This document shows positions 35,306 to 36,121 of a stretch of DNA of 64,000 nucleotides, piece by piece. Position numbers and translations under genes: made by a program. Position 1 is the stretch's first letter, and each line of letters begins with the position of its first letter. The notes beneath the pieces were generated by a model, which saw nothing but the letters and a program-made list of their open reading frames with translations, did not search any database and was not told the origin of the DNA. The stretch is taken from sequence record PV659873.1; one strand, given 5' to 3'. This DNA comes from Escherichia phage WPEC1.

Positions 35306-36121
35306 TTATTTGTTTAAGTGGTCTTCGACCATTTTAATGAAACCTTCATTGCTGAAGGCTGTTGCAGCTTTTTCTCGGTAAACAAAAACTCCACGATCTT
35401 CATAGAGAAGTGTTTCTTCGTAATTAACTCCAGGGTTAACTACAACCATTTTTGTACCCATACTAAGTGCAGGAAATAATTCCCAATTAAAATTGATAAC
35501 TTGGTTTGAACATCCTACTACTACAACCAAATCTTGCATGGTCAAAGTATCGAACAAGTGAGCCATATCTGCATACAAAGGTGCAGCCTCACCAAAAAAT
35601 ACAACATTAGGCTTCACCCAGTTATAATCATCTATGTTTATACTATTGTAACCAATATCTACCAGTGTTTTGTAATCTCCAGGATGCATACGGTAAACTA
35701 CTTCAGGAAGATATCCGTGTACGTGAATAACAGAATCTCTGTCTACACCTGCTCGCTCTAGTAGATCATCAACGTTTGTTGTCAAGTTTACTATTTGGTT
35801 AGGATATTCCTTAAACCACTTTGCTATTTGAATATGTGCAGCATTAGGTTGTACATCTTTAAGCTCAACACGTCTTTTGTTATAAAATTCGTGTGTTTTG
35901 GCATACAAATCCATACCGTTCTCGTCTACACCACCGACCACTGGAAGATCTGGAGATGTTCTAACACGATAACCTGCTTGGAAAGCTCCAATATCGCAGA
36001 CCTCTTCTAAATCATATTCTTCCCATAAAGCACGACCACTATCTGTGTCTGTTCTAAATGTTCGAATCCCACTGTCTGCGCTTAAACCTGCACCGCTTAC
36101 AAAAATTACTCGTCTTGGCAT
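35306..36121 (-). CDS. Sir2-family (sirtuin-like) NAD-binding protein
   Basis: GAGLSADSGIRTFR, TTNVDDLLERAG and HVHG motifs; no CxxC zinc-ribbon pairs visible. Confidence 0.65.
   Translation of the reverse strand: MPRRVIFVSGAGLSADSGIRTFRTDTDSGRALWEEYDLEEVCDIGAFQAGYRVRTSPDLPVVGGVDENGMDLYAKTHEFYNKRRVELKDVQPNAAHIQIAKWFKEYPNQIVNLTTNVDDLLERAGVDRDSVIHVHGYLPEVVYRMHPGDYKTLVDIGYNSINIDDYNWVKPNVVFFGEAAPLYADMAHLFDTLTMQDLVVVVGCSNQVINFNWELFPALSMGTKMVVVNPGVNYEETLLYEDRGVFVYREKAATAFSNEGFIKMVEDHLNK

Follow-up and report, generated by a model that had tools for sequence, protein, structure and literature searches.

What is the substrate of a phage sirtuin that lacks the cysteines of the canonical zinc ribbon? 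The question is posed by an open reading frame (ORF) encoding 271 amino acids (aa) in Escherichia phage WPEC1 (sequence record PV659873.1), which runs on the minus strand from an ATG at position 36121 to position 35306, stop codon included, of the 64,000-nucleotide stretch of DNA that was analysed as a whole and is called the window below. We are highly confident that this ORF represents, in Phapecoctavirus, a known and widespread phage sirtuin family, PHROG 2162. As to function, the reading we favour, at a probability of roughly 0.4, is that of a zinc-independent protein deacylase whose acceptor would be acyl-lysine on host or phage proteins.

A member of a catalogued phage sirtuin family

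The translation matches Pfam SIR2 (PF02146) above its gathering score (E 1.9e-22; 80.5 bits, cutoff 24) and PHROG 2162, 'Sir2 (NAD-dependent deacetylase)', over its full length (aa 2-271, E 2.8e-104), so its identity as a sirtuin is far beyond chance. This bears out the original prediction, which had recognized a Sir2 family protein from its core NAD-binding and catalytic motifs, GAGLSADSGIRTFR, TTNVDDLLERAG and HVHG, all of which were located. The protein is 100% identical to gp056 of phage Schickermooser and to other annotated Phapecoctavirus proteins, and Sir2 or NAD-dependent deacetylase is its existing annotation in most near-identical Phapecoctavirus genomes. Over the surrounding 3.2 kb, identity is 100% with Escherichia phages WPEC2, WPEC4 and WPEC6, and 99.3-99.8% with many Phapecoctavirus genomes, for example phAPEC8_ev052, ESCO13, Schickermooser and Mt1B1_P17; the window is from a Phapecoctavirus, a phAPEC8-like E. 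coli myovirus.

A tblastn search with the sirtuin hit 983 phage records, in 913 of which the match extends over 80% or more of the query, with identities of 50-62% in T5-like phages, 55-58% in Klebsiella myoviruses, approximately 46% in rV5-like phages, and 36-37% in Vibrio KVP40-like phages (nt-1) and the Serratia jumbo phage BF. The GC content of the gene (38.4%) equals that of the window (38.5%), and it is therefore regarded as a long-resident phage gene. Its start codon is preceded at a distance of 5 nucleotides (nt) by a GAGGAGG Shine-Dalgarno sequence (36126..36132, minus strand, as are the other features around the sirtuin in the window given below unless stated otherwise), which lies inside the 3' end of an upstream 161 aa ORF.

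The gene is thus already catalogued, and both its zinc-less character and its possible roles are in the literature. Phage Sir2/CobB proteins without zinc ligands were reported by Skliros et al. in 2016 (PMC5107563), who listed T5, SPC35 and others as carriers, read a KVP40-type homologue as a deacetylase, as we do here, and recorded a high transcript level for it by 20 min post-infection. Iyer et al. (2022, PMC9503650) assigned most viral sirtuins to a clade of their own, exemplified by Serratia BF, E. coli V5 and SP15.

Conservation of the catalytic core

Motif coordinates were checked by translation and by alignment to CobB of E. coli. The cofactor-binding loop GAGLSADSGIRTFR (aa 10-23; 36053..36094) is nearly identical to the GAGISAESGIRTFR of CobB. 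It is followed by FYNKRR (aa 79-84; 35870..35887), which aligns to FYNARR of CobB and holds the Tyr80-x-x-Arg83 pair characteristic of class III; by TTNVDDLLERAG (aa 114-125; 35747..35782), with N116 and D118 of the nicotinamide/ribose pocket; by HVHG (aa 133-136; 35714..35725), aligned to HMHG of CobB and containing the catalytic His135; and by FFGE (aa 175-178; 35588..35599), the FGE substrate-binding loop, aligned to WFGE of CobB.

Conservation was assessed at two depths: an alignment of 31 near homologues (A1; 56-94% identity), and a distant set for which 1.84 billion representative proteins were searched and the best 150 matches aligned, from which 135 more distant relatives (48 zinc-less and 87 Cys-rich) were compared. 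In all 31 near homologues G10, A11, G12, S14, S17, G18, F22 and R23 of the cofactor-binding loop are invariant, as are Y80, R83, R84, N116, D118, H135, G136, F176 and E178. Among the distant relatives H135, G136 and N116 are conserved in 135 of 135 and D118 in 131; Y80 is retained in 47 of the 48 zinc-less and 82 of the 87 Cys-rich proteins, and R83 in 38 and 67, respectively. The residues of the class III substrate channel are conserved (F176-x-E178, V117, H135, Y80, R83).

Other positions depart from the canonical pattern. Position 115, the Gln of canonical TQNID, is Thr in the WPEC1 protein and in 33 of the 48 zinc-less relatives, and Gln in 72 of the 87 Cys-rich ones; the GTS motif reads GCS; and a variable 25 aa insert (aa 48-72) is absent from some relatives. 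The protein is acidic, with an isoelectric point (pI) of 4.83 (clade median 5.2).

A zinc ribbon that has degenerated in place

The original prediction had also remarked on missing zinc-ribbon cysteines, and here the translation agrees: the protein has C42 and C204 as its sole cysteines and contains no CxxC motif. Between HVHG and FFGE, the segment of aa 137-172 (35606..35713) is nonetheless similar in length to the corresponding module of CobB, and in an AlphaFold2 model it forms three beta strands (136-144, 152-155, 168-173) with predicted local distance difference test (pLDDT) values of 94-96. None of the 18 nearest clusters in the distant search carries a CxxC, and the T5-like, rV5-like, nt-1 and BF homologues likewise have no zinc cysteines. 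From approximately E 1e-32 outward, many relatives of 40-47% identity carry CxxC...CPxC at the same site, around the same I-G-Y motif, and in the 87 Cys-bearing relatives the four module columns are 95-99% Cys. At two of these columns the WPEC1 protein has Y143 and D149, and its second CPxC knuckle is deleted. Because relatives at this level of identity keep the canonical pair of CxxC motifs at the same place, the zinc-less clade must derive from ordinary zinc-ribbon sirtuins. Judged from alignment and model together, the ribbon is degenerate rather than vanished, its cysteines lost by substitution and its three-strand module kept. In isolated phages, the closest tblastn match to one zinc-bearing relative (P0140) was only about 40% identical.

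Small zinc-ribbon proteins were seen directly upstream of a zinc-less sirtuin in two independent lineages. One is gp111 of Serratia phage BF (locus L005, 5738-5953), a 71 aa protein with CxxC...CxxC; the other, in a metagenomic phage contig (locus L018, 4818-4991), is a 57 aa protein that matches Pfam Zn_ribbon_8. Together with the Cys-bearing 161 aa protein encoded upstream of the WPEC1 sirtuin, these two ribbons prompt the conjecture that a zinc module might be supplied in trans; they may also stand there by chance, small zinc ribbons being common in phages.

A predicted fold within the deacylase cluster

In sequence, the best match among solved structures is E. coli CobB (E 7.6e-19), followed by Sir2Af2, TmSir2, Sir2Af1 and SIRT5. 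The AlphaFold2 model, built on the 31-homologue alignment, has a mean pLDDT of 90.3, and a Foldseek search of the PDB with this model again ranks CobB first (1s5p, E 1.3e-17), then Af1, Af2, SIRT5 and TmSir2. This ranking puts the predicted fold inside the deacylase cluster and well away from the defence NADases, and no structural proximity to defence Sir2 domains was seen. The original prediction had proposed just such a comparison between CobB and defence-type Sir2 domains, having likened the protein to the latter, and its outcome runs the other way. On sequence grounds we regard the phage protein as a descendant of class III (CobB/SIRT5-like) sirtuins. Against the features of a conventional deacetylase, which the original prediction had named as evidence that would overturn it, the result is divided: the zinc ligands are indeed absent, and the small beta module has kept its length and the substrate channel its conserved residues.

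A zinc-independent deacylase as the favoured reading

Family membership, conservation of catalytic residues, cysteine loss and the predicted fold are directly supported here; activity and acceptor we infer. By homology to known sirtuins the protein would bind NAD+, a substrate oxygen would attack C1' of the nicotinamide ribose and expel nicotinamide, and His135 would then activate the ribose 2'-OH for a second step. In such a course NAD+ would serve sirtuin-type transfer on a bound substrate and would not be freely hydrolysed, and for a deacylase the expected products would be nicotinamide and O-acyl-ADP-ribose. What favours acyl-lysine as acceptor is the homology, together with retention of the Tyr/Arg pocket and of the FGE loop. 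The Tyr-x-x-Arg pair of class III sirtuins (SIRT5, CobB) binds the carboxylate of succinyl- or malonyl-lysine, and by analogy with CobB and SIRT5 the acyl group is probably anionic or short. One zinc-bearing relative, in a Mycoplasma-like contig, lies two genes from a lipoate-protein ligase, which fits a protein-acyl function in the wider family.

This reading must be tempered by several observations that weigh against it. The strand after the GTS motif (GCSNQVINF) departs from the canonical V-Y/Q-P peptide-binding strand, and within the FGE loop G177 is variable between the invariant F176 and E178. The host already encodes CobB. In several lineages the sirtuin gene stands beside or overlaps genes for RNA-end or phosphate processing, not protein modification. 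In the literature we found no biochemical or genetic characterization of any phage sirtuin in this clade. Finally, the curated NCBIfam models for CobB all score below their cutoffs (NF001753, 106.3 against 243; NF040867, 85.9 against 320; NF001755, 84.9 against 318). The candidate identity as a CobB orthologue, or curated CobB equivalog, was rejected on these cutoffs; the scores fall so far under them that the phage protein is assigned to a separate subfamily.

RNA repair as the main alternative, and gene context in other lineages

A serious though tentative alternative is that the protein is a Tpt1/KptA-like RNA repair enzyme whose acceptor is an RNA 2'-phosphate and which would help to repair tRNAs cut by host anticodon nucleases. 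In this scheme cREC or 2H enzymes would open a 2',3'-cyclic end, and religation of the RNA would leave a 2'-phosphate; that phosphate would attack C1' of NAD+, His135 would activate the ribose 2''-OH to attack phosphorus, and the products would be 2'-OH RNA and ADP-ribose 1'',2''-cyclic phosphate, the latter disposed of by neighbouring cyclic-phosphate, phosphatase and Nudix enzymes. The two-step chemistry of sirtuins is formally parallel to that of Tpt1; the enzymology is established, and its link to this sirtuin is our inference. More broadly, we consider it possible, without holding it probable, that the zinc-less clade is not a deacylase clade at all and that its members are either Tpt1/KptA analogues or, more generally, enzymes whose target is a phosphate or acyl group attached to RNA or to a nucleotide. 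KptA-like removal of RNA 2'-phosphates was itself predicted for viral sirtuins from their gene neighbourhoods by Iyer et al. (2022, PMC9503650, section 3.7.3).

The case for RNA repair rests largely on repeated adjacency, in independent lineages, to genes for cyclic-phosphate, phosphatase, Nudix and RNA-ligase enzymes, and the loci in rV5-like phages, Iguana, T5-like phages and BF were re-checked in this respect. In the rV5-like phage DrSchubert the order is PNK, phosphoesterase, then Rnl1-cREC-sirtuin-MazG; Klebsiella phage Iguana has a phosphoesterase gene first, followed by Rnl1, cREC, a PNK-like ATPase, one small ORF, the sirtuin, DNA ligase and MazG. In the T5-like phage SPC35 a gene for a HAD_SAK_2 phosphatase overlaps the sirtuin gene by 20 nt; homologues of this HAD protein occur in approximately 498 phage records, and it overlaps or adjoins Sir2 in most of the T5-like records sampled. 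In Serratia BF the order is NMNAT, NAMPT, a 2H protein, a small ORF, sirtuin and a Nudix-cREC fusion. Metagenomic T4-like contigs show the arrangement RlaP-SIR2-NADAR and an overlap of SIR2 with PTH2, and one bacterial contig shows SIR2-Metallophos; several other metagenomic contexts of relatives were uninformative. In the contig with the PTH2 overlap (locus L021, 5001-6100) the zinc-less relative shares 4 nt with the PTH2 gene, and RNase_T-like and 2OG-Fe(II) oxygenase genes lie nearby, a further setting with a link to tRNA or RNA.

We considered and rejected the idea that every lineage has a conserved small ORF upstream of its sirtuin: an all-against-all BLAST of 17 ORFs gave homology only within the T5-like group and between the cRECs. 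A match of the 161 aa protein to SPC35_0093 in this 17-sequence database (39 aa, E 0.007) is not credible.

The lineage to which WPEC1 belongs does carry an RNA-repair set. In Schickermooser it comprises MazG (gp106), a PNK-like protein (gp113), Rnl1 (gp114), a calcineurin-type phosphoesterase (gp115) and cREC (gp118). These genes lie 27-33 kb from the sirtuin, however, and none of them is in the window: tblastn with Rnl1, PNK, phosphoesterase, cREC, MazG, HAD, 2H, Nudix-cREC, NAMPT and NMNAT queries taken from other sirtuin loci gave nothing at E <= 1 in the 64 kb, so that the RNA-end-processing neighbourhood (cREC, 2H, HAD, Rnl1, PNK, Nudix) seen in other lineages has no counterpart here. 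The Schickermooser block (46461-52199; locus L006, 4962-10700) contains MazG, DNA ligase, three small ORFs, PNK-like ATPase, Rnl1, phosphoesterase and cREC, largely the same genes as the Iguana block (locus L007, 1950-8569) in roughly reversed order, with a different position for cREC. Because the slot between ATPase and DNA ligase holds the sirtuin in Iguana and three small ORFs in Phapecoctavirus, relocation of the sirtuin in the phAPEC8 lineage is suggested.

Further points tell against an RNA substrate. We know of no sirtuin shown to act on RNA. The protein is acidic, has no clade-specific conserved basic residues beyond those common to CobB, and has kept the peptide-binding FGE loop and the distal Tyr/Arg pocket. 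Adjacency is also weaker evidence than it would be in bacteria, because genes concerned with nucleotides, RNA and NAD are crowded together in the early regions of phages. The 2H protein of BF, gp110 (locus L005, 5281-5727), is a better match to Pfam Acb1 (anti-CBASS; E 3.6e-15) than to the 2'-5' RNA ligase family (E 1.4e-4). It is annotated as 'RNA ligase' and treated in the literature as a 2H RNA-repair enzyme.

NAD consumption, ADP-ribosylation and loss of function

The original prediction had called a lack of zinc typical of defence-type, NAD-consuming Sir2 modules, and suggested that the protein could manipulate host NAD pools or ADP-ribosylation, or counter NAD-based defences. On that account the protein would hydrolyse NAD+ without an acceptor or destroy NAD-derived immune signals, and the absent cysteines fit it, as does the company kept by some relatives. 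In BF an Acb1-like gp110 lies between NAMPT/NMNAT and the sirtuin, and the locus could for that reason be read as an anti-defence island; NAMPT lies two genes upstream of SIR2 in one T4-like contig, and an Apyc1-like gene lies near a sirtuin relative in another contig. We nevertheless consider this account quite improbable, having found nothing in support of free NADase activity. No PADLOC defence profile matches the sirtuin (no family at E <= 0.01); none of the sensor or partner domains of defence systems (SLOG, HerA, pAgo/APAZ, STAND, a large C-terminal domain) occurs in the stand-alone, single-domain 271 aa chain or in its neighbours; a constitutive NADase would be harmful to a lytic phage, and in the 141 kb of Schickermooser that were read no NAMPT or NMNAT is annotated. 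The zinc loss moreover arose within a CobB-like lineage and not by inheritance from a defence Sir2. A defence-type Sir2 was accordingly rejected on the PADLOC result and the fold comparison.

A SirTM-like mono-ADP-ribosyltransferase, marking a protein or a nucleic-acid base, with NADAR or Macro erasers to reverse the mark, is in our view very improbable. A NADAR gene does lie immediately downstream of one zinc-less relative, and a NADAR (DUF1768) protein is encoded in Schickermooser, the closest reference genome, elsewhere than the sirtuin; the adjacency is a single case, however, and deacylases stand far nearer to the phage protein than SirTM does. Both the catalytic His and the acyl pocket of class III are retained, and the SirTM hallmarks (an operon with a macrodomain and lipoyl-carrier/LplA2, a modified catalytic centre) were not found, with no Macro, GcvH-L or LplA2 partner nearby in the phage.

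That the protein is an inactive remnant or has a purely structural role is barely credible: loss of the zinc site could destabilize the small domain, but no catalytic or NAD-binding residue varies between lineages whose overall identity is only 35-60%, the predicted fold is confident with the small module included, the gene is retained in about 980 phage genomes, and the KVP40-type homologue is highly transcribed by 20 min post-infection (PMC5107563).

Gene context in the window

Directly upstream of the sirtuin, the 161 aa ORF (36106..36591) encodes an acidic protein (pI 4.05; PHROG 9509). The final 16 nt of this ORF run into the sirtuin start, and its 3' end holds the Shine-Dalgarno sequence, an arrangement from which the two proteins are likely to be co-translated. 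The 161 aa protein occurs in 131 phage records, mostly as the gene immediately preceding Sir2, and is confined to Stephanstirmvirinae-like phages; no fold could be assigned to it. Four cysteines (C15-x2-C18, C43, C158) are invariant in 9 homologues. Its C-terminal EEEECQD is also invariant, possibly through conservation at the DNA level, because it overlaps the Shine-Dalgarno sequence and start codon of the sirtuin. Terminator-like hairpins, each coinciding with a terminator annotated in Schickermooser, lie just past the sirtuin stop codon (35281..35298, an intrinsic hairpin) and upstream of the 161 aa ORF (36610..36634), and would bracket a two-gene unit, the 161 aa gene first and the sirtuin second.

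Just upstream of the second hairpin (36634-36610), inside the 3' end of a 217 aa ORF, is a near-consensus sigma-70-like promoter on the minus strand (36649-36678; TTGACA, an 18 nt spacing and TG-TATAGT, 11 of 12 matches), which gives an unusual promoter-then-terminator order ahead of the 161 aa/sirtuin pair. On the other side a bidirectional terminator-like hairpin (34963-34986) marks the boundary between a block of small early ORFs that run rightward and the leftward block with the sirtuin.

The downstream neighbour of the sirtuin encodes a 90 aa protein. Further upstream are genes for the 217 aa protein (PHROG 8514), a 241 aa ORF (PHROG 757, 'DNA methyltransferase'), a 137 aa protein and, four genes upstream of the sirtuin, a 313 aa protein (38376-39317; PHROG 2141) with DUF7277 and DUF7275 (E 7.5e-76); all five are uncharacterized. 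The neighbours had been described at the outset as uncharacterized (the acidic 161 aa protein, the 217 aa protein and a methyltransferase-like protein), and the 161, 217 and 241 aa proteins indeed have no Pfam or NCBIfam match.

The window is not colinear with the Schickermooser reference. Window positions 17283-43110 correspond to Schickermooser 944-26574, after which the alignment jumps to 35302 (junction at window 43107-43110); at this jump, near position 43110, the window lacks a block with the genes for HslV, PhoH, lysozyme, glutaredoxin and dTDP-rhamnose. Positions 52525-64000 correspond to Schickermooser 71752-83227, with a breakpoint region at 52372-52525, and the 27 kb jump at 52525 skips the ligase/PNK/Rnl1/cREC block together with tRNAs, terminase, portal and capsid. 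Positions 1-3120 are the reverse complement of Schickermooser 68179-71299. Identity between WPEC4 and the window is 100% only over 17282-43110; in its flank, WPEC4 carries window 43107-45493 in inverted form. The lack of colinearity reflects either large rearrangements that are real or faulty assembly of the records in this group. In the WPEC4 record itself, approximately 13 kb (32800-45600; locus L010, 28200-41000) immediately after a gene for a NinI-like phosphatase hold dozens of ORFs of 30-120 aa on both strands, and look like non-phage, low-quality or misassembled sequence.

Significance

The object is not new: a catalogued family has been re-identified, and its interest rests on the substrate question. 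The gene is present in roughly 1000 sequenced phages of enterobacteria and vibrios, many of them candidates for phage therapy, and 'NAD-dependent deacetylase' is applied to phage sirtuins routinely, as an assay-free label. If the protein is a deacylase, these phages would reprogramme the acyl-lysine proteome of the host with a zinc-independent sirtuin. If Tpt1-like RNA repair is instead correct, this would be the first nucleic-acid substrate of the sirtuin fold and a new counter-defence step against tRNA-cleaving immunity.

Comparison with known systems

The defence Sir2 NADases (ThsA, DSR1/2, Sir2-HerA, SPARSA, Avs5) share with the WPEC1 sirtuin a Rossmann-type Sir2 core, the catalytic His and Asn, and the absence of a canonical zinc ribbon. 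Tpt1/KptA has an unrelated fold and no homology to it, and is a candidate only in the sense of 'works like'; the likeness would lie in the use of NAD+, expulsion of nicotinamide by an anionic oxygen, and attack by the ribose 2''-OH to give a 1'',2''-cyclic product, and in the RNA ligase, PNK and cyclic-phosphate enzymes found around the sirtuins of other phages. With its PHROG 2162 relatives (T5, SPC35, rV5, KVP40/nt-1, BF) the WPEC1 protein shares the family profile, which it matches over its full length, and all of them lack the zinc cysteines; the phAPEC8-lineage gene differs from them in that it is not beside cREC, Rnl1, PNK or HAD, and is coupled instead to the lineage-specific 161 aa protein.

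Sir2Af1 (1ICI), PfSir2A and SIRT5 are class III deacylases that, unlike the phage protein, bind structural zinc through four cysteines. CobB of E. coli (1S5P, 6RXJ), a class III sirtuin with protein lysine deacetylase and desuccinylase activity, is only about 27% identical to the WPEC1 protein. The latter differs from it in its replaced or deleted zinc cysteines, in Thr for Gln, in GCS for GTS, in its acidity, in its diverged strand after the GTS position and in scores far under the curated CobB cutoffs. CobB is nevertheless its top match by both sequence and structure: the two share a near-identical GAGxSAxSGIRTFR loop, the Tyr/Arg pair of FYNxRR, the xNxD pocket, HxHG, xFGE, and a small module of similar length.

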